This document shows positions 11,975 through 63,654 of a stretch of DNA of 64,000 nucleotides, piece after piece. Numbering within the stretch: position 1 is the stretch's first letter; each line of letters starts with the position of its first letter. The translations under genes were made by a program, and so were the position numbers. This DNA comes from an uncultured Thermoplasmata archaeon (GTDB lineage: Archaea; Thermoplasmatota; Thermoplasmata; Lutacidiplasmatales; UBA184). Where the stretch lies: assembly GCA_963749205.1 (NCBI GenBank), contig CAVVLW010000011.1, forward strand, positions 4,367-68,366, given 5' to 3'. The notes under the pieces were generated by a model. It did no database searches. It was not told the DNA's origin and was given only the letters and a program-made list of their open reading frames with translations.

Positions 11975-12047
11975 AGCCCCGTGGTGTAGTGGCCAAGCAT
12001 GCTGGCCTTTGGAGCCGGCGACAGCGGTTCGAATCCGCTCGGGGCTA
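11975..12047 (+). tRNA. tRNA-Gln (anticodon TTG), intron-less, CCA not encoded
   Basis: Manually folded: acceptor AGCCCCG/CGGGGCT; D-arm GTGT-AGTGGCCAA-GCAT; anticodon arm CTGGC-CTTTGGA-GCCGG (U33, anticodon UUG, R37); variable loop CGAC; T-arm AGCGG-TTCGAAT-CCGCT; discriminator A. Confidence 0.85.
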
Positions 12048-12283
12048 GTTCACACCACTCGCCTTCTGGCTAGGGCGTTCCGCGGGCGGCGCCTGAAGAA
12101 CCGACCGTCCCGGAAGGGGTTGCTTGAGTACGTCCCCGCAGTGAGCGAAGTTCACTCCACGAATCACTGGCTCCCGCCGCGACAAAGTTGCTGAGGCCGG
12201 CCCTCTTGGCTGCGAGAGATCTTGATGCAGGGGGATGGCTCCGCCGGATCAACAAAGGCCGAAGTCGGCAGTCGAAACGACGG

Positions 12284-12919
12284 CTACGGGTACTGCTCGC
12301 AGGTGATATCGAAGACGAACGTAGGAGTGTACACTCCGTTCTGTGAGGGCAGCGTGACGTTCAGCCAGAGGGACGCTGGGGGGTTGGAGTTGGCGTTCTC
12401 CCCCGAGAAGTTCAGTGGGAACGGGTGAGCGCTCCAGACGCCACTCTTGAGCTGTGCCTCCAACGATAGAATCGCAAAGGGGGAGAGCGCGACGATCCCG
12501 TTCACACTGCAGTTCACTGGGACGCCGGGGGGAAAGAGGTCTTCATAGATTGTCAGGCCGAGCCGCACCGCGCTTCCTGCGGGAGCCTGAATTGTCCAAA
12601 CAGAGGGCGATTCGCTGGTGGCATTGAACCAAGCTCCGACGTATTCGAAAACATTCGTCGCCGTCTTACCCGCCGGCACATTGGTGTAGTTGAACCATAG
12701 ATTTGCACCGTTAACGAGCACGTCCGTCGGTCCACTCGCCCGGGTCTCCAGGTAGAACGTGGCGAATACGACGCTCAGGACCACGACTACGACGGCGGCG
12801 ATGGCTGCCCAACGTCGGACTCGATGCGGTTTTTGAGTGATACCGGTTGGTCGCGGCCCACCGGGTTCTAGAGAGGATCCGGGGGGCGGTGTGCCGGCCG
12901 ATCCGACGAGCGCCGCCAT
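12284..12919 (-). CDS. membrane-anchored secreted protein with multiple N-glycosylation sequons (hypothetical surface protein)
   Basis: N-terminal TM/signal anchor (WAAIAAVVVVVLSVVFATFYL) followed by a beta-rich domain carrying NYT, NAT, NCS, NFS, NVT sequons. No recognisable family. Confidence 0.45.
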   Translation of the reverse strand: MAALVGSAGTPPPGSSLEPGGPRPTGITQKPHRVRRWAAIAAVVVVVLSVVFATFYLETRASGPTDVLVNGANLWFNYTNVPAGKTATNVFEYVGAWFNATSESPSVWTIQAPAGSAVRLGLTIYEDLFPPGVPVNCSVNGIVALSPFAILSLEAQLKSGVWSAHPFPLNFSGENANSNPPASLWLNVTLPSQNGVYTPTFVFDITCEQYP

Positions 12920-12964
12920 CCATTCGCCCCGCCGGGATTCGGCTCCGAGGTATTCAACCTATCC

Positions 12965-12979
12965 GTGTCAGGCTGCGGT
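12965..12979. repeat. left 15-bp target-site duplication GTGTCAGGCTGCGGT
   Basis: Identical 15-mer occurs at 14134..14148 immediately outside the right IS end. Confidence 0.7.
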
Positions 12980-14133
12980 TCTGGAGTACGGAAATTAGTT
13001 CCCTCTCCCGCCCAAGAAGAACCTGCCCTCCTGCCTTCCACTGGAAAGGGGGGTTCGAAGGGGGGACCGACCTTCGGTTCCTGGCAGCGTCTCCTTCCCC
13101 CGAGGTCCTTCGGTCGCGTGACCAAGCTCACCGACCGTCGCATCGAGTGGCTGATCCGCCAGGCGCAAGGAACCGTTCGGCCTCGCGAGACGGTCGGTCA
13201 GATGGCCGCCCGCTGGGGCGTCACGCCTCGCTGGCTGAGGAAGCTCCTTCAACGGTGGCGCCAGTCCGGGGTCGTGCCCCACCTCAACCCCCGACGGCGA
13301 CCTCCCGGGCCTCCGCTGACCGACGAGGAGAAGCAGGCGATAGAGGAGGAACACCGTCGGTCGCCTCGCGGCGCCACGAAGCTCTGGCGAGCTCTGGCGC
13401 GACGCGGAGTCCGCATCCCGCACGAGAAGGTCTACCGCTACGCCCGGAGCCAAGGCTGGGCGGTACCCAACCCGCGCAAGCAGCGACCCCGGGGCCGATG
13501 TCGATACGAGCGGGAGCACACGGGCTCTCTGGTGCACACCGACTTCCACCGAACCAGCCTGGACCATCCCCACGTCATCCTCTACGAGGACGACGCCAGT
13601 CGGAAGGTGCTGGCCGGGGGCGAGTTCCCCGAGCAGTCGACCGAGCATGCGATCGAGATGCTCGAGGAGGCGATCGCGGAGGCGGCGAGCTGGGGCCTCT
13701 CGATCCGCGAGGTGAACACCGACCGGGGGACGGAGTTCTTCGTCAGTCCGAAGGTCGACCGGCCGGACGCCAGCCCGGGGCAGTTCCAGCGATTCCTGGC
13801 GGAGCACGGGATCCGCCATGTCGTCAGTCGGCTGAAGAACCCACAAACCAACGGCAAGCTAGAGCGGTTGTGGTACCAGTACCGACCGCCATCGGTGGCG
13901 GTTCCCCACGCTGGGGGAGTTCATCGAGTGGTACAACGACCAGATCCACGACGCGCTGTGGCTGGAGATGTACGAGACCCCGCGGGAGGCGTTCCAGCGG
14001 AAGCTACCCCCCGAGGTCCTCCTGGGACTCCACCTACGTCAGGTCGCGGCGATCGCAGGAGAGGCATGACCGACGGAGATCCTCCCCCGAACCCCCACCG
14101 TTCAAGTACCGGAACTAATACCCGTACTCAACA
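12980..14133 (+). mobile_element. IS481-like insertion sequence (about 1154 bp) with imperfect terminal inverted repeats
   Basis: Left end TCTGGAGTACGGAAATTAGTTCC (12980-13002) against the reverse complement of the right end TGTTGAGTACGGGTATTAGTTCC (14111-14133): 19/23 matches, with a core 17-mer matching 15/17. Flanked by perfect 15-bp direct repeats. Encodes one rve-type DDE transposase. Confidence 0.75.
13118..14069 (+). CDS. DDE transposase/integrase (rve core), frame broken near 13880-13900
   Basis: N-terminal HTH (VTKLTDRRIEWLIRQAQG...), catalytic core ...HTDFHRT...NTDRGTEFF...NGKLERLW. The C-terminal ...FPTLGEFIEWYNDQIHDALWLEMYETPREAF is in a different frame (F P T L starts at 13902). 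GTG start assumed. Confidence 0.75.
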
Positions 14134-14148
14134 GTGTCAGGCTGCGGT
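14134..14148. repeat. right 15-bp target-site duplication GTGTCAGGCTGCGGT
   Basis: Identical to 12965..12979. Confidence 0.7.
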
Positions 14149-14308
14149 ACTGAGCCTTGAGCGGTTTTCTAGCGCCGGGGGTGTGCAAAGAGGCCGGTCT
14201 CCGAAGGGAGGGCGGAGTCCGGCTTTTCGCGGGTGGGCTAGGTCTTCTCCTTCCTGCGTCGCTCGGCCCGTGGCTGGGGCCCCATTTCCTTCGGACCGCA
14301 GCACGCGT

Positions 14309-14725
14309 TTAGGGATTCCGAGCCGGAAGAACCTGGAAACCAGCCTCCGAAAAATTGTGGTCGAAGGTGAAGGCGCGACCGATTTCGAGCTCTTGCATCA
14401 GGACAAAGCTCGTGCAATCGGTCAGGCTCCACCGCTTGTCCTCATGAGCGAGCATCAGCTCGACCGCATGGTCGAAGTCGCGCTCGGAGACCCGCAGCAT
14501 TTGCAGGTTTGACGAGCCGGTGAGAAGGCCTCGCAGACTTCGCACTGGACCGATTCCGAGCCGCATACGAAGGAGCGTGTAGGTCTCATCGAGAACATAA
14601 TCCGTGGTCAGGATTCTGCCGAACTCCCCCTCGGTCACGCGCCCGAAGAGCTTGACCGCATCCTCGTTGCGGCGCTCACGATTGTCTGCGAGCGCGTACC
14701 AAGCGCTCGAGTCGACAAGGATCAT
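14309..14725 (-). CDS. vapC: PIN-domain ribonuclease toxin VapC
   Basis: MILVDSSAWYALADNRERRNEDA... (PIN acidic residues D5, E...; ...DYVLDET...). Internal start chosen; ATGA overlap with the vapB stop. Confidence 0.75.
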   Translation of the reverse strand: MILVDSSAWYALADNRERRNEDAVKLFGRVTEGEFGRILTTDYVLDETYTLLRMRLGIGPVRSLRGLLTGSSNLQMLRVSERDFDHAVELMLAHEDKRWSLTDCTSFVLMQELEIGRAFTFDHNFSEAGFQVLPARNP

Positions 14726-14961
14726 TCTAGGGGACCATACAGGATTTCGTCGTGATGCTCGGCCACGTTCGTCCTCGGTCCCTTTCTCCGGACGAGAGGG
14801 AATGCGGTAAAAAGCGGATCTGACGGGTCCACGTTGTCCGGCAACAGCTGCGCCCGAAGGGCGGCCCGAATCCAATCCTGCATCGTCTTACCTTCACCGC
14901 GTGCCTTCCGGCGGAGGAGCTCGTACTCTGCTTCCGGAACTCGGGTTTGGATTAACTTCAT
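14722..14961 (-). CDS. vapB: ribbon-helix-helix-type antitoxin VapB
   Basis: 79 aa. MKLIQTRVPEAEYELLRRKARGEGKTMQDWIRAAL is an RHH/CopG-like N-terminus; located directly upstream of vapC and overlapping it. Confidence 0.65.
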   Translation of the reverse strand: MKLIQTRVPEAEYELLRRKARGEGKTMQDWIRAALRAQLLPDNVDPSDPLFTAFPLVRRKGPRTNVAEHHDEILYGPLE

Positions 14962-15242
14962 ACAATCTGCTATCTGTTACTGACTATATGAGGGTGCCCG
15001 GCCCTGGTTGAGCCTGGCGAGTGCGGATGGGAGCCTCCACCGCCGTCGCCGGGGTCGGACCCGGACCGATTCCGATCATTGAAATGGGTTCATGGAGCGG
15101 CCGAGGAGGCCCCCCGAGAGTTGGACGCGCAAAGTTCCGTGGGTTTGATCGGCCAGCATGCGTATGCACGCCGCGGATGTATCCAACTTATCCCGTTGCG
15201 GCAGGCGAATCCGCTCAGGGCGATATCCCCCTCCTGAGTGGT

Positions 15243-16210
15243 TTACGGCGCGCCCGCCCCTGTGGAACTCGCGAGCACGGCAGGAAACCCTTGACGGACG
15301 GTGGGAAACTTGAGTTCCAGACCCAACAGGTCCTTCGCCCGCTGATTGCGGGCTCTACGAGAGCTCGTGAACGTCTCCGCATTCACGCGCCCTACCATGA
15401 GGGACGCGAGCCATACCGGGACGGTCCGCCGAACCGGAGGTCGTCCGAGGCTTGCTGCCAAGCTTGCTTGCCACGCAGATTGGGTCAGCGGCTCGTCGTC
15501 GACGATGAGGAACTCCTCTCCCCGGTGAGCGCGCTCCACCGCGGCCCGAATCCCTTCCCCGACGTCCGTCGACGACACCAACGACGAGTAATTGGACCCG
15601 AGGCCGACCAGCACCCCCCGGTTCTGGCGAATTCGGTTAGCGAATCCCGGGAACCAGCCGGACGGCCCGTAAATGAGTCCCATCCGGAGCGTGACGAGCG
15701 GAAGCCCCCACTCCCGCTGCGCCTCGGCGAGGAGCGCACGGGAGAGGACACTGAGGTGCGAATAACCGCTGGGCGCCGAAGCGCGGGGCGTGGATTCGTC
15801 GAACCATGCTTCGCCCGTCGGGGCGTAGTCTTCGAGGCCGCTCAGTGCCACATAGGTATGGAGCGAGGCCGCCTGGGCACGCACCTTCGAGAGGAGGAAG
15901 GCGACCATTCGTCGCCGCACCTCCGCCCCACGACGGGCCTTGCCCAAAGTCAGCGGCCGGAGAATCGGACCTGCGTTGCGTCCACGACGGCCGTGATCCC
16001 TTCCATCGCCGCTTGCCAGTCGCCTTGGCCCGACAGGTCTCCGACGACCGTGGCAACTTGTTGGCCCTGGAATAGTTTCGCTGCCTCGGGTCGCCGGATC
16101 AGCGCCCGAACGGTGTGGCCGTGCGCAGCCAGTGCCCGGGTGGCCGCTTCGCCCACCAGGCCGGTCGATCCGACGACGAGGACGGTCTCGGACACCACAA
16201 CCTCGCTCAA
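15243..16210 (-). CDS. NmrA-like NAD(P)-binding SDR-family protein (atypical epimerase/dehydratase); frame broken near 15948
   Basis: N-terminal Rossmann motif VLVVGSTGLVGEAATRALAAHGHTVRALIRRPE (ORF 15950..16210) continues as ...PLTLGKARRGAEVRR...YG... in ORF 15243..15947. The two ORFs are in different frames. Confidence 0.65.
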
Positions 16211-16318
16211 GGGCCGGGCAGAATAAAGCGTGGGGTTGGTCCGCCCTTCCCCCCCAGAGGCCTATGCCCGGTCCGGCGAGGGCTTAACCTCCGGGCCTGA
16301 TACCGTCCGGGTGGTTCC

Positions 16319-17379
16319 ATGGCAGTCGATCCAGACAAGTTGAACCAGTTCGTCGGAAAGTTTCTCGGCGATGTCGGTGCTGCTATCCACGGACCGACCA
16401 TCTTGATCGGAGAACAACTCGGTCTCTACAAGGCCCTGGCCGCGGGCGGACCAATGAGCTCGGAGCGACTCGCGGAAAAGACCGGCATTCCAGAACGCTA
16501 CGCCCGCGAGTGGCTCGCGGGGCAGGCAGCTTCCGGGTACGTCAGAGTACCAGTGCCGGCGCCGGACGTTACTGGATGACGCCCGAACAGGCGTTCGCCT
16601 TGACGGTGGAGGACAACCCGGTCTACATTCCGGGGGTGTACTACACGATCGGGTCCGTCTACAAGGACCAACGGAAGATCGCCGAGGCGATCAAGTCCGG
16701 CAAGGGGTTCGGCTGGCACGAACACCACAACGACCTCTTCATCGGCACGAAGAAGTTCTTTCGACCCGGCTATCTCGCCAATCTCGTGAGTTCCTGGCTC
16801 CCGAGCCTCGAGGGGGTCGTGCCGAAGCTCGAGGCGGGCGCCCGCGTCGCTGATGTCGGCTGCGGTCTCGGCGCCTCGACCATCATCATGGCCAAGGCGT
16901 TTCCGAAATCCAAGTTCATCGGCTTCGACTACCACTTGGAGTCGATCGAATGGGCCCAGAACGATGCGGTGACGGCGAGTGTGACCCCCAACACGGACTT
17001 TGAGGTCGCGACCGCGAAGGATTTCCGGGGGAAGGACTACGACCTCATTTGTTTCTTCGACTGTCTCCACGACATGGGCGACCCCGTCGGTGCGGCGCAC
17101 CACGCGCTCAAGACGCTCAAACCGGACGGGACGCTGATGGTCGTCGAACCGTTTGCCCACGACCGGGTCGAACAGAACATGAATCCGGTCGGCCGGATCT
17201 TCTATAACGCGTCCCTCTTGGTCTGCGTCCCCGCGTCCCTATCTCAGGAGGTCGGGAAAGGTTTGGGGGCTCAGGCGAGCGATGCGAGCCTGTTCGAAGT
17301 GTTCCGCGACGCGGGATTCACGCGGGTTCGGAAGGCGATCGAGACGCCATTCAACCGGGTCTTCGAAGCACGGCCCTGA
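16319..17379 (+). CDS. SAM-dependent methyltransferase with N-terminal winged-helix dimerisation domain; frame broken near 16545-16560
   Basis: The wHTH part (...ERLAEKTGIPERYAREWLAGQAASGYV) lies in ORF 16319..16579. The methyltransferase part with motif I VADVGCGLGAST and ...ICFFDCLHDMGDP lies in ORF 16510..17379, in another frame. Confidence 0.7.
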
Positions 17380-17506
17380 ACCCAGTGAGCCGGTGGCGCA
17401 TTCGGCCCTCCCAACGTTCAAAAGGCAGGCGTAGCTGTCGGGAGCCGGGGTCGAAGAACGACATGGGCCGCTACGTCTTCACCCGGTCATCGGTAGAGGA
17501 CCTCCC

Positions 17507-18899
17507 ATGACCGGCATTCGAAAGGAGACCGACAGCCTCGGCGAGGTCGACGTTCCCGCAGACAAGCTTTGGGGAGCGCAGACCCAGCGATCCCTTGAAT
17601 ACTTCAGCATCGGCCAAGACCTCATTCCGCGGGAGATGATCACCGCTTACGCGACGCTGAAGAAGGCCGCCGCGATCGCCAACCATGACGGCCATCGGCT
17701 GGCCGAGGGACCCTACCGGTTGATCGGTACAGGTCTGCGACGAGATCCTTGCCGGCCAGCATCACGACATGTTTCCGCTTCACGTTTGGATGACGGGGAG
17801 CGGCACCCAGTTCAACATGAACGTGAACGAGGTGATCTCCAACCGCTGCTGCCAACTTGCTGGGACGCCGCTCGGAAGCAAATTGCCGGTGCACCCGAAC
17901 GACCACGTTAACATGGCCCAATCGACCAATGACACCTTCCCGTCCGCCATGTACATCGCCGCGGCCATGAGCGTGAAGCAGAAGCTGGTCCCGGCGGTAA
18001 AGGCGCTCGAGGCGGCGATCGCTTCGAAGGCCGAAGCGTGGCGCGACATCGTGAAGATCGGGCGGACTCACCTGCAGGACGCCACGCCCCTGGCCCTCGG
18101 CCAAGAGTGGTCCGGTTATGCGGGAATGCTGGCGGAGGACCTGGAGCGGATCGAGGACGCATTGAAGGGCGTGTACCGACTCGCCTTGGGCGGGACCGCG
18201 GTCGGGACCGGCATCAATTCGGCGCCCGGTTTCGGCGAGGCGGCGGCGGCCGAGATCGCCCGGTCCACGGGTCTGCCCTTTGTAAGCGCACCCAACAAGT
18301 TCGCGGTGCAGGGCGCCCACGACGCGCTGGTGCAGCTTTCCGGTACGCTTCGTACGCTCGCCGGCTCGCTCTACAAGATCGCGAATGATATCCGACTTTT
18401 GTCCTGCGGTCCTCGAGCGGGGTTCGCCGAGCTGTCGATCCCGGAGAACGAGCCCGGGTCGTCCATCATGCCGGGCAAGGTGAACCCGACGCAGGCCGAG
18501 GCGCTGACGATGATCGCGGTCCAGGTGATGGCGAACGACGTCGCCGTCGGCTTCGGCGGCGCAGGAGGTTACCTCGAGATGAACGTCTACAAGCCCCTGA
18601 TGATCTACAACGTCACCCACTCGATCACGATCATGGCGGACGGGTGTACCAACTTCCGCAAGTTCTTGATCGAGGGGACGGAGCCGAATCGGAAAAAGAT
18701 CCAGGAGTACGTCGACCGCTCCCTCATGCTCGTGACCGCTCTCTCGCCGGTCATCGGCTACGACAAGGCGTCACAGATCGCGCACTATGCCTTGGAAAAC
18801 GACCTCACACTGAAGGCCGCCGCGCTGAAGCTGGGCTTCGTGACCGAAGAAATGTTCGACCGAGTGGTCGACCCGGCGAAGATGATCAAACCGCAGTAG
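17507..18899 (+). CDS. fumC: fumarate hydratase class II; frame broken near 17727-17731
   Basis: [33 protein letters not shown]... (ORF 17507..17911) then ...[35 protein letters not shown]...[13 protein letters not shown] (ORF 17769..18899). Class-II fumarase signature. Confidence 0.9.
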
Positions 18900-52431: not shown

Positions 52432-52968
52432 CTACGCCTCGTCTTCGGGAAAGGACTCGTCCGGCGGGGCGGTCAGCGCCGCGCGCAGGGGCACCGGCCT
52501 TCGGTAAGGCGCCGGGGCAGATTCGTAGGCCGCCCGCGGCGTCTCCACCACCCGCAGGGTCGTCTCGCTTCCGTTCCCGTCGTAGGCCCTCCACGCGCCC
52601 CGTCCGTACGGGGCTCCGAGGATCAGGTGCCGCCGACCCCAGCTGCGGAAGAGCCGGAGGTCCGCGTCCGACGGGCGGAGCGCGCCCGAGGGGTGGGAGT
52701 GCACGGTGCCGGCGACCGAGAGGTCGGCGTGGAGCATCCATAGCTGGAAGTTGGCGTGGCGACGGCCGGCGGTGGTACCAGGGAGCAGCAACAACTCGCT
52801 GATGACCCCCGGCGGGTCGGCCCGCAGCACCCCCCCGAACTCATTCGGGAGGGCGGACCGTGCGCTCGCGAGCGCGCTCTCGAGGGCCCGGCGAGTGATC
52901 GCGGTCGGGGTGTCTCCGAGGCGGGGCCCGCCAGGGGGGCGCTTACGTTGGGGACGGAAGATCGGCAA
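52432..52968 (-). CDS. JAMM/MPN+ domain metalloprotein (Mov34 family)
   Basis: JAMM motif E...HSHPSGALRPSDADL (HxHx7Sx2D), 178 aa. Confidence 0.7.
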   Translation of the reverse strand: MPIFRPQRKRPPGGPRLGDTPTAITRRALESALASARSALPNEFGGVLRADPPGVISELLLLPGTTAGRRHANFQLWMLHADLSVAGTVHSHPSGALRPSDADLRLFRSWGRRHLILGAPYGRGAWRAYDGNGSETTLRVVETPRAAYESAPAPYRRPVPLRAALTAPPDESFPEDEA

Positions 52969-60050: not shown

Positions 60051-61154
60051 AGCCCCGAGTCCTCAAGATCTTCGCGCAGCTCGACCCGAAACCGGAGGCG
60101 GTCCTCTTCTCGAACGCGATCGACCCGCACCTCGACCAGACGTTCTTCTACCTGTTCGACGTGCCCGCGGGCCTCTTCGAGGGGTCGATCGCGATCGGCC
60201 ACCCGGACGGGGAACTCGACGTCTTCTCTTCGCCGCTCGAGGCCGAGACCGCGCACGAGGCGGCGAAGCGCGACCCCCATGTGACCGTCCACGTCGTCGC
60301 GCGCGACGAGACGGCCGCCGCCGCCCGCAAGCTCCTCGGGCCGAGGACCACGCTCGGGCTCAACTACCGAGAATTGACCCACGAATGGTTCCTGCGCCTG
60401 GATTCGGCGTTCGGCGGACCGAAGTGGGTCGACTGCTCGAACGCAATCCGGCGCGCGCGCGTGACCAAGGATGCCAACGAGGTGGAACTCCTCCGGAAGG
60501 CAGGGGAGATCGGCTCGAAGGTCGGTCGAGGAGATCCCGGGGCTGCTCAAGGCCGGCATGTCCGAGCTCGAGCTCGCCGCGGAGATGGAGTACCGGATGA
60601 ACCGACACGGCGCGAGCGGGCGCTCGTTCGCCACGATCGTCGCGTTCGGTCCCCACAGCGCCGAGCCGCACTACGCGCCGGCCGAAACGAAACTGAAAGC
60701 GGGCGACTCGATCGTCTGCGACTTCGGCGCGTACTACCGGCGCTACGCGAGCGACATCACCCGCTCGTTCCATTTCGGGCGACGGGACGACGAGATGAAG
60801 AAGGTCCACGAGACCGTGCTCAAAGCCCAGCAGGCCGCCCTGGCGGTCGTTCGACCAGGAGTCCCTTCGAAGGAGGTCCACCTCGCCGCCGCGAAGGTGA
60901 TCGACGACTCTCCGTGGAAGGGCCGCCTGACCCATGGGGTCGGTCACTCCATCGGCCTGGTCGTACACGACGGATGGGCCTACGGGGCCACGGCCGAGGA
61001 TGCGCTGGAAGTGGGGATGGCGATCACGGTCGAACCCGGCATCTACCTGCCCGGCCACGGAGGGGTCCGGATCGAGGACGACATCGTCGTCACGAAGAAC
61101 GGATACGAGTTCCTTACCACCGCTCCGCGAGAGTACCTCGAGGTCCCGGCGTGA
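60047..61154 (+). CDS. pepP: Xaa-Pro aminopeptidase/prolidase (M24B); frame change near 60520
   Basis: Creatinase-type N-domain, then the pita-bread core with metal ligands ...DFGAYYRRYASDITRSF..., ...HGVGHSIGLVVHD..., ...VEPGIY..., ...IEDDIVVT. ATGA overlap with the gcvPB stop. Confidence 0.8.
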
Positions 61155-63186: not shown

Positions 63187-63339
63187 CTAGAAAGTGAGCA
63201 GCGGCCGGCCGAGGAACTGTTCGGTGCCGTGGAGGAACGACCCGATGGCCGACATGACATCGACCCCGAGGTGGTTCAGCGCGAGTACGAGGCCGAGGAC
63301 GGCCATCACCGAAATAAACCAGCTCATTACCGCGGTCAT
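63187..63339 (-). CDS. possible small membrane protein (50 aa)
   Basis: MTAVMSWFISVMAVLGLVLALNHLGVDVMSAIGSFLHGTEQFLGRPLLTF; the rest of ORF 63187..63519 is arginine-rich and probably non-coding. Confidence 0.25.
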   Translation of the reverse strand: MTAVMSWFISVMAVLGLVLALNHLGVDVMSAIGSFLHGTEQFLGRPLLTF

Positions 63340-63548
63340 CGTCTTCACCGGCTCGGGCGGAGGTCTGTTCCGGCGCTTCCGATACATAAATCGCGACCTC
63401 GACTCGCACGACGGGTTGCGCGGCCACGACGTTCGGGCTCGGTCGAACGCGCGCGCGCAGCGCGCGCTCGGGCGCGGGCGCGGGCGCGTCGGCGCGCGAG
63501 CACGTTCGGCAAGATTCATACCATGCAGTGGTTAGGCCAGCGGGGTTG

Positions 63549-63654
63549 CCCTGGTAGTCTAGCGGTCTAGGATGTAGGTCTGTCGAGCCTGCGACTCGGG
63601 TTCGAAGGCGCGGAGGGGTCGCCCCCCTCCGCCCGGAACTCCCGACCAGGGCGC
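63549..63654 (+). tRNA. tRNA-Asp (anticodon GTC) with a 33-nt intron (63608-63640) between nucleotides 59 and 60 of the T-loop
   Basis: Exons 63549-63607 + 63641-63654 = 73 nt. Fold: acceptor GCCCTGG/CCAGGGC; D-arm GTCT-AGCGGTCTA-GGAT; anticodon arm TAGGT-CTGTCGA-GCCTG (U33, GUC, G37); variable loop CGAC; T-arm TCGGG-TTCGAA^T-CCCGA; discriminator G. The intron itself folds as GCGGAGGGG-tcgcc-CCCCTCCGC. Confidence 0.8.

Follow-up and report, generated by a model that had tools for sequence, protein, structure and literature searches.

A T-loop intron with a strict bulge-helix-bulge motif predicted in the tRNA-Asp gene of Lutacidiplasmatales-like archaea

Results

An interrupted tRNA-Asp gene

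The window analysed here, a stretch of 64,000 nucleotides, carries what is very probably a functional tRNA-Asp(GUC) gene of an archaeon of the Lutacidiplasmatales (TMEG), with an intron in the T-loop that is predicted to be spliced through a strict bulge-helix-bulge (BHB) motif. These 64 kb are the portion of the genome covered for tRNA-Asp gene content, and a second tRNA-Asp copy lacking the intron may exist outside them. A previous sequence-only reading had proposed a tRNA-Asp(GTC) with a 33-nt intron between tRNA positions 59 and 60, in the T-loop. Its identity is borne out by ARAGORN on the 73-nt spliced form, and the intron and its site by the BHB geometry and by an insertion at the same site in 17 relatives. 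Gene and intron were thus both real, but had each been placed one base off, the correct positions being 63548-63653 and 63607-63639. The gene and its parts are as follows:

63548-63653, + strand: tRNA-Asp(GTC) gene, complete, pre-tRNA body of 106 nt (sequence; ARAGORN on the spliced form)
63548-63606, + strand: 5' exon, tRNA positions 1-59 (sequence, ARAGORN, alignment A1)
63582-63584, + strand: anticodon GTC (ARAGORN cloverleaf; invariant in alignment A1)
63607-63639, + strand: intron of 33 nt, GGCGCGGAGGGGTCGCCCCCCTCCGCCCGGAAC, between tRNA positions 59 and 60 (BHB geometry, invariant T60)
63640-63653, + strand: 3' exon, tRNA positions 60-73 (sequence, ARAGORN, alignment A1)
63510-63521, + strand: putative BRE/TATA promoter, CAAGATTCATAC, 27-38 nt upstream of tRNA-Asp (conservation)

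The gene is laid out as GCCCTGG TA GTCT AGCGGTCTA GGAT G TAGGT CTGTCGA GCCTG CGAC TCGGG TTCGAA (33 nt) T CCCGA CCAGGGC G. The 5' exon holds the acceptor 5' strand GCCCTGG, whose first base is 63548, the D arm, the anticodon arm, the variable region, the 5' strand of the T stem and T-loop nucleotides 54-59. The 3' exon holds U60, the 3' strands of the T stem and of the acceptor, and the discriminator G73 (63653), CCA being absent from the gene sequence. Removal of the intron between both predicted cut sites gives a canonical tRNA. The earlier statement that deleting 63608-63640 leaves a canonical 73-nt tRNA-Asp could be reproduced, since removal of either 63607-63639 or 63608-63640 leaves 73 nt that ARAGORN folds into a normal cloverleaf and identifies as tRNA-Asp(gtc). 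The two registers differ in the mature T-loop, which is TTCGAAT in the first case and TTCGAAG in the second. The intron is fixed as 63607-63639 by the BHB geometry together with the invariant T at the 3' junction and the variable base at the 5' junction. The spliced tRNA-Asp then has, besides the TTCGAAT loop, a G15:C48 pair, G18G19 and G73.

Upstream of the gene, AAGRTTCATA or a near variant is found at equal distance in most of 18 genomes, in flanks that are otherwise unalignable, and we infer that this motif is a BRE/TATA promoter. It and the 5' end of a minus-strand ORF for a small membrane-protein-like product (63187-63519) are arranged back to back.

Splice sites and the BHB motif

The BHB has been defined as a 4-bp helix between two 3-nt bulges, the first two anticodon bases lying in the helix in canonical introns (PMC4090602); by this definition, each cut falls after the second bulge nucleotide. 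In the constrained fold, the T arm and the intron form a strict 3-4-3 hBHBh' motif with flanking helices on both sides, composed of the following elements:

63596-63600, + strand: T stem 5' strand TCGGG, outer helix h (pairs with CCCGA, 63641-63645)
63601-63604, + strand: central BHB helix, exon strand T54 T55 C56 G57 (pairs with 63634-63637)
63634-63637, + strand: central BHB helix, intron strand CGGA (pairs with UUCG)
63605-63607, + strand: 5' bulge, A58 A59 / G (constrained fold; splice site 63606/63607)
63638-63640, + strand: 3' bulge, A C / T60 (constrained fold; splice site 63639/63640)
63608-63633, + strand: intron hairpin, helix h' (folds, covariation in 18 genomes)

Helix h' has a closing pair G63608:C63633, a bulged C63609, nine base pairs (63610-63618 with 63624-63632) and a loop (63619-63623). 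The nine pairs are those of the 9-bp GC hairpin already recognised in the intron by the sequence-only reading, and its strands are GCGGAGGGG (63610-63618) and CCCCTCCGC (63624-63632). In the modelled precursor, U54-G57 is paired with the 3'-proximal CGGA of the intron in place of forming the T-loop. The BHB fold of the T arm has an energy of -27.5 kcal/mol for the window sequence, 3.9 above the local minimum-energy fold (-31.4), in which the pairs G63607:C63634 and G63608:C63633 form and UUCGAA stays open; selection of the BHB would therefore fall to tertiary context or to the enzyme. At three related loci (L005, L012 and L018), the exact BHB is itself the unconstrained minimum-energy fold.

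The intron had initially been taken to imply an endonuclease with relaxed BHB recognition, and a fold across the junctions had been suggested as a check. Such a fold does reveal a BHB motif, but a strict one instead of a relaxed hBH or HBh' form. That the motif is after all relaxed (hBH, HBh' or BHL) and needs a broad-specificity EndA, either an (alpha-beta)2 enzyme with the crenarchaeal loop or an epsilon2 enzyme, is very unlikely. Such a reading would agree with the usual association of non-canonical introns with relaxed motifs and enzymes of this sort (PMC4033280, PMC5829648), with the hBH type of the 59/60 intron in ARMAN-2 tRNA-Cys (PMC3239211), and with 4 of 18 genomes in which helix h' beside the 5' bulge consists of one closing pair and then an internal loop. 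Against it, the complete set of elements, two 3-nt bulges around a 4-bp central helix and a flanking helix at either end, is present in the window and in nearly all variants. Each bulge is exactly 3 nt long with pairs on either side of it, both in the window and in 14 of the 18 genomes; the remaining 4 retain one closing pair. In the window, neither a bulge nor a flanking helix is missing or replaced by a loop. The EndAs of high-GC, Thermoplasmata-like contigs described below, none of them from known intron carriers, would also speak against it, being two-unit and alpha'2-like.

Detection by annotation tools

Standard finders miss the gene. ARAGORN did not report the unspliced tRNA-Asp in a search of the window, nor did its intron mode return a tRNA on the unspliced region. 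Searched over the whole window at the gathering threshold and at E<=1, Rfam gave only tRNA-Gln (11975-12047); in a 241-nt search around the gene, the Rfam tRNA model gave a sub-threshold 19-bit match to the 5' part (63548-63610), and the sole other match in that region was 10-bit noise. At six related loci (L002, L007, L008, L014, L018 and L020), ARAGORN does call the interrupted tRNA-Asp, with wrong boundaries: the misplaced models are 74-92 nt long and use intron sequence as T arm or acceptor. Automated annotation of the clade may thus hold malformed tRNA-Asp calls. Since the gene is missed or misbounded by ARAGORN and Rfam, genomes of this clade, which is abundant in acidic soil and peat, can seem to have no tRNA-Asp if the search is not an intron-aware archaeal one.

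ARAGORN also proposes a 91-nt tRNA-Gly(tcc) at 52589-52679 on the minus strand, a probable false positive that Rfam does not support even at E<=1; the region is GC-rich, coding-like DNA.

Conservation in relatives and metagenomes

The 106-nt precursor was used as BLAST query against 80 syntenic loci. Of the 20 closest species genomes, 17 have an interrupted tRNA-Asp, always downstream of mtnA and with the insert at the identical site. In alignment A1 of 18 sequences, also used for pair counting, 66 of 73 exon columns are invariant as compared with 3 of 33 intron columns, and those three are a C, a G and an A in the 3' portion of the BHB. The bulge A and T60 are invariant in the 18 genomes, the first intron base being variable. 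Acceptor, D and T stems show zero variation, the five T-stem pairs included, and the anticodon stem has two compensatory pairs, 26:44 (G:C/C:G) and 29:41 (G:C/A:U/U:A). The central BHB helix is paired in 100% of the 18 genomes, with U-A/U-G alternation, and 8 pairs of the intron hairpin changed on both sides, as counted in a gapped and imperfect alignment. Overall covariation was 0.176, as compared with 0.086 in shuffles; none of 500 shuffles reached the observed value, and the peak was at slide 0.

Scanning metagenomes for the two exon flanks, set 15-45 nt apart, returned at least 120 contigs with the interrupted gene, mostly from peat and soil. Pooling the metagenome matches listed with the genome loci gave at least 126 distinct introns of 28-35 nt. 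Among these listed matches, the central helix is fully paired with UUCG in 123 of 126 distinct introns; its intron strand is CGGA in 88, CGAA in 28, CGGG in 3 and CGAG in 3 (122/126). Again among the matches listed, 125 of 126 introns have complementary bases at the closing position of the inner helix (G:C 117, C:G 6, G:U 2), the third base of the 5' bulge is G in 89, C in 28, T in 6 and A in 3, and the 3' bulge begins with AC in 110 of the 126. The hairpin of the introns among the matches listed averages 8.4 bp, with a mean z of -2.9 against shuffles.

Judged by these alignments, the recurrence of the interrupted gene across genomes and metagenomes is far beyond chance, the structure of the intron is conserved while its sequence is free, the sole apparent constraint being the maintenance of the BHB, and the intron is, on its distribution, fixed since before the clade diversified. 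As nothing beyond the BHB positions is conserved, a guide-RNA or other sequence-specific role seems unlikely. On the same grounds, we rejected the intron as an attachment site or integration scar, as a terminator hairpin and as a box C/D guide. A self-splicing group I or II intron was rejected as well, the insert measuring 28-35 nt against a core of hundreds of nucleotides, and no Rfam intron family being matched.

These data bear on two further readings. In the first, the gene would be disabled and never spliced, either a pseudogene or a scar left in the T-loop by an inserted mobile element, as might be suspected from the failure of standard finders to see it and from the frameshifted genes around it in the window. 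This is extremely unlikely: exons are near-invariant with compensatory stem changes, the insert varies freely but always keeps the BHB (18 genomes and at least 126 variants), and the promoter-like motif upstream is conserved. In addition, AcS3-62, a carrier of the gene (L018), was reported to have tRNAs for all 20 amino acids, found with tRNAscan-SE -A (PMC9287336). In the second, the 33 nt would stay in the mature RNA as an expansion of the T-loop, or the locus would encode a different structured RNA. The minimum-energy fold of the 106 nt, which is not a cloverleaf (-59 kcal/mol, z -3.5), would suit this, a reading that we find scarcely credible for three reasons. The weak tRNA match and the 10-bit noise are the only Rfam matches; what is conserved in the insert amounts to a BHB and nothing more, and its length varies between 28 and 35 nt among the matches listed; and a T-loop sequestered in a helix is unable to make D-loop contacts. 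D-loop/T-loop contacts are needed by every elongator tRNA.

The preferred interpretation is thus a functional tRNA-Asp(GUC) with a spliced intron, for which the following pathway can be proposed. EndA would recognise the BHB without need of the mature domain and cut at 63606/63607, after A59, and at 63639/63640, at the 3' end of the intron; the exons would then be joined by an RtcB-type ligase, restoring the T-loop UUCGAAU, and CCA would be added post-transcriptionally by the CCA-adding enzyme. EndA cleavage, RtcB ligation and CCA addition are established steps of archaeal tRNA splicing. With U54-G57 sequestered in the precursor, docking of the T-loop to the D-loop, and T-loop folding and modification, would have to follow splicing.

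Organism and genomic context

The window has a GC content of 67.5% and encodes an archaeal-type tRNA-Gln, GcvP subunits, an M24 peptidase, PFK, an MtnA/eIF-2B-like protein and UppS. The best match of the MtnA homologue is a Thermoplasmata MAG (92% identical), and it shares 76-80% identity with the Lutacidiplasmatales MAGs AcS1-45, AcS1-3 and AcS3-62. The last of these is the type genome of Candidatus Lutacidiplasma silvani and carries the interrupted tRNA-Asp. Genomes of the Lutacidiplasmatales (TMEG) have 67-71% GC and come from acidic soils (PMC9287336). By composition and protein matches, the window is from a high-GC Thermoplasmata lineage close to Candidatus Lutacidiplasma (Lutacidiplasmatales/TMEG). 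The hint of Thermoproteales or Korarchaeota that had been drawn from the intron position is not supported, the MtnA matches placing the window near Candidatus Lutacidiplasma.

With respect to the closest relative (L001), single-base uncompensated indels occur at 60529, 62957, 63040 and 63932. They fall in the M24 peptidase, the MtnA C-terminus and UppS, and each gene is frame-split; they are probably assembly errors, perhaps from long-read data, or else mark pseudogenes. Given such indels in neighbouring genes, small errors in the intron loop are possible.

A further feature of the window is a patch at 11975-18000, directly 3' of the intron-less tRNA-Gln(TTG) (11975-12047), in which GC drops to 0.60-0.64 against a mean of 0.675. 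Its ORFs include an rve/HTH_32 transposase-like one at 12965-14512 (+ strand) and a PIN-domain one at 14309-14875 (- strand), and by its content the patch looks like a mobile element.

Candidate splicing endonucleases

The strict hBHBh' motif has been reported as cleaved by every archaeal EndA type (PMC4033280, PMC4090602). With a strict motif, any of the four EndA architectures should suffice, and a broad-specificity enzyme would be unneeded (PMC4033280, PMC5829648). A tblastn search with the Methanocaldococcus jannaschii EndA, whose sequence was checked against PDB 1A79, matched nothing in the window, nor in loci totalling 1.3 Mb. Two protein searches returned EndAs of about 350 amino acids made of two units with an N-C-N-C Pfam architecture, whose named relatives are Thermoplasmata and Methanomassiliicoccales archaea. 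Three members (P0101, P0229 and P0234) are encoded on contigs of 65-67% GC and have no insertion before the catalytic His; P0229 aligns across both units with the fused enzyme of M. kandleri and the alpha'2 enzyme of A. fulgidus. The records of these two-unit EndAs (CAZXJU01, CAYVGY01, Ga0613688 and Ga0395771) lie outside the genomes shown to have the intron. The EndAs of the P0229 group, from genomes other than those shown to carry the intron, would fit the alpha'2 type by their architecture and alignment. EndA of Thermoplasmatales has been reported to be of the alpha'2 type. At the EndA loci L201-L205, on Thermoplasmata-like contigs of 65-67% GC, the two-unit endA lies in a conserved purL-purQ-endA-(PKD)-alaX neighbourhood.

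Discussion

The order-wide occurrence of a strict-BHB T-loop intron in tRNA-Asp is new in placement and lineage only, the mechanism being ordinary. The same motif and geometry are known from canonical introns at position 37/38, such as those of Haloferax tRNA-Trp and Methanocaldococcus tRNA-Met. As in these, there is a 5-bp stem, four nucleotides of the loop pair with the 3' portion of the intron, the cuts, here predicted ones, fall after the second base of each of two 3-nt bulges, the intron forms a hairpin, and the insertion site, 59/60 like 37/38, separates the sixth loop nucleotide from the seventh. T arm and anticodon arm are of equal shape, with a 5-bp stem and a 7-nt loop, which makes the T-arm motif the exact counterpart of the one at 37/38. 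The two differ in the arm concerned: the 37/38 introns lie in the anticodon arm and mask the anticodon, whereas the tRNA-Asp intron lies in the T arm, sequesters U54-G57 and blocks the T-loop.

The 59/60 site itself is shared with tRNA-Pro(GGG) and tRNA-Cys(GCA) of ARMAN-2 (Candidatus Micrarchaeum), where the intron of tRNA-Cys is of the relaxed hBH type and tRNA-Pro combines a strict hBHBh' intron with one at 53/54 (PMC3239211). Isoacceptor (Pro and Cys versus Asp) and lineage (ARMAN-2 versus Thermoplasmata) differ from the present case. Furthermore, ARMAN-2 tRNA-Pro has two adjacent T-loop introns, whereas the Lutacidiplasmatales-like tRNA-Asp has a single one, and the relaxed hBH of ARMAN-2 tRNA-Cys is cut by an epsilon2 enzyme, whereas the motif found here is strict. 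The multi-intron tRNAs of Thermoproteales and Thaumarchaeota likewise have introns at non-canonical sites, including the T-loop, and undergo protein-dependent BHB splicing. These lineages differ in having many introns per genome, often relaxed, and an (alpha-beta)2 EndA with a specificity loop, as opposed to one strict case here: a brute-force scan of 1.38 Mb for other tRNAs with a strict-BHB intron at 59/60 returned only tRNA-Asp.

Within the Euryarchaeota, tRNA introns have been described as essentially canonical (PMC4090602), and Korarchaeum was stated to be the only archaeon with an alpha2 enzyme and non-canonical introns (PMC4033280). Table S7 of the tRNAscan-SE 2.0 survey gives 25 non-canonical introns in 6970 euryarchaeal tRNA genes, among them 6 in 3 genomes of Methanomassiliicoccales and 1 in 5 genomes of Thermoplasmatales (PMC8450103). 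As tabulated there, these cases belong to the same class, Thermoplasmata, and are, as here, rare BHB introns at non-canonical positions; the Lutacidiplasmatales fall outside the survey as represented in that table (PMC8450103). The paper describing the Lutacidiplasmatales genomes does not mention tRNA introns (PMC9287336).

Our results indicate that an intron at a non-canonical position can stay fixed for long, across many genera, in a lineage of the Euryarchaeota type. As the strict canonical splicing signal is rebuilt in the T arm, intron position and endonuclease specificity need not co-evolve. The at least 126 natural variants of the intron also constitute a ready mutational data set on the tolerance of the BHB.

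Whether the intron is more than a neutral passenger is a matter for speculation, and we consider it very unlikely that it acts as an integrase barrier or splicing checkpoint or that it records an exchange between DPANN and Thermoplasmata. As the intron hides U54-G57 and splits the segment from the T arm to the 3' end, it might, throughout the order, keep out integrases whose attachment sites are tRNA 3' halves. As a checkpoint, it would make T-loop modification and folding into the L-shape dependent on splicing. In the third case, the likeness in site and flanking exons to Micrarchaeota-like tRNA-Asp would point to an exchange in acidic habitats, with DPANN symbionts on one side and Thermoplasmata hosts on the other.

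The exon flanks of tRNA-Asp recur around a 59/60 intron on contigs of lower GC, and the site is therefore common to this clade and DPANN lineages, whether by convergence or by transfer. Two metagenome contigs of 47-48% GC, L124 (2538-2662) and L198, each have a tRNA-Asp in which T arm and acceptor are unchanged and an intron sits at 59/60, and in both a D-loop insert of about 21 nt also needs to be removed; the DnaK encoded on L124 is closest to that of Candidatus Micrarchaeota. A contig of 35% GC (L087) carries another tRNA-Asp variant, with an AT-rich 59/60 intron of 34 nt.
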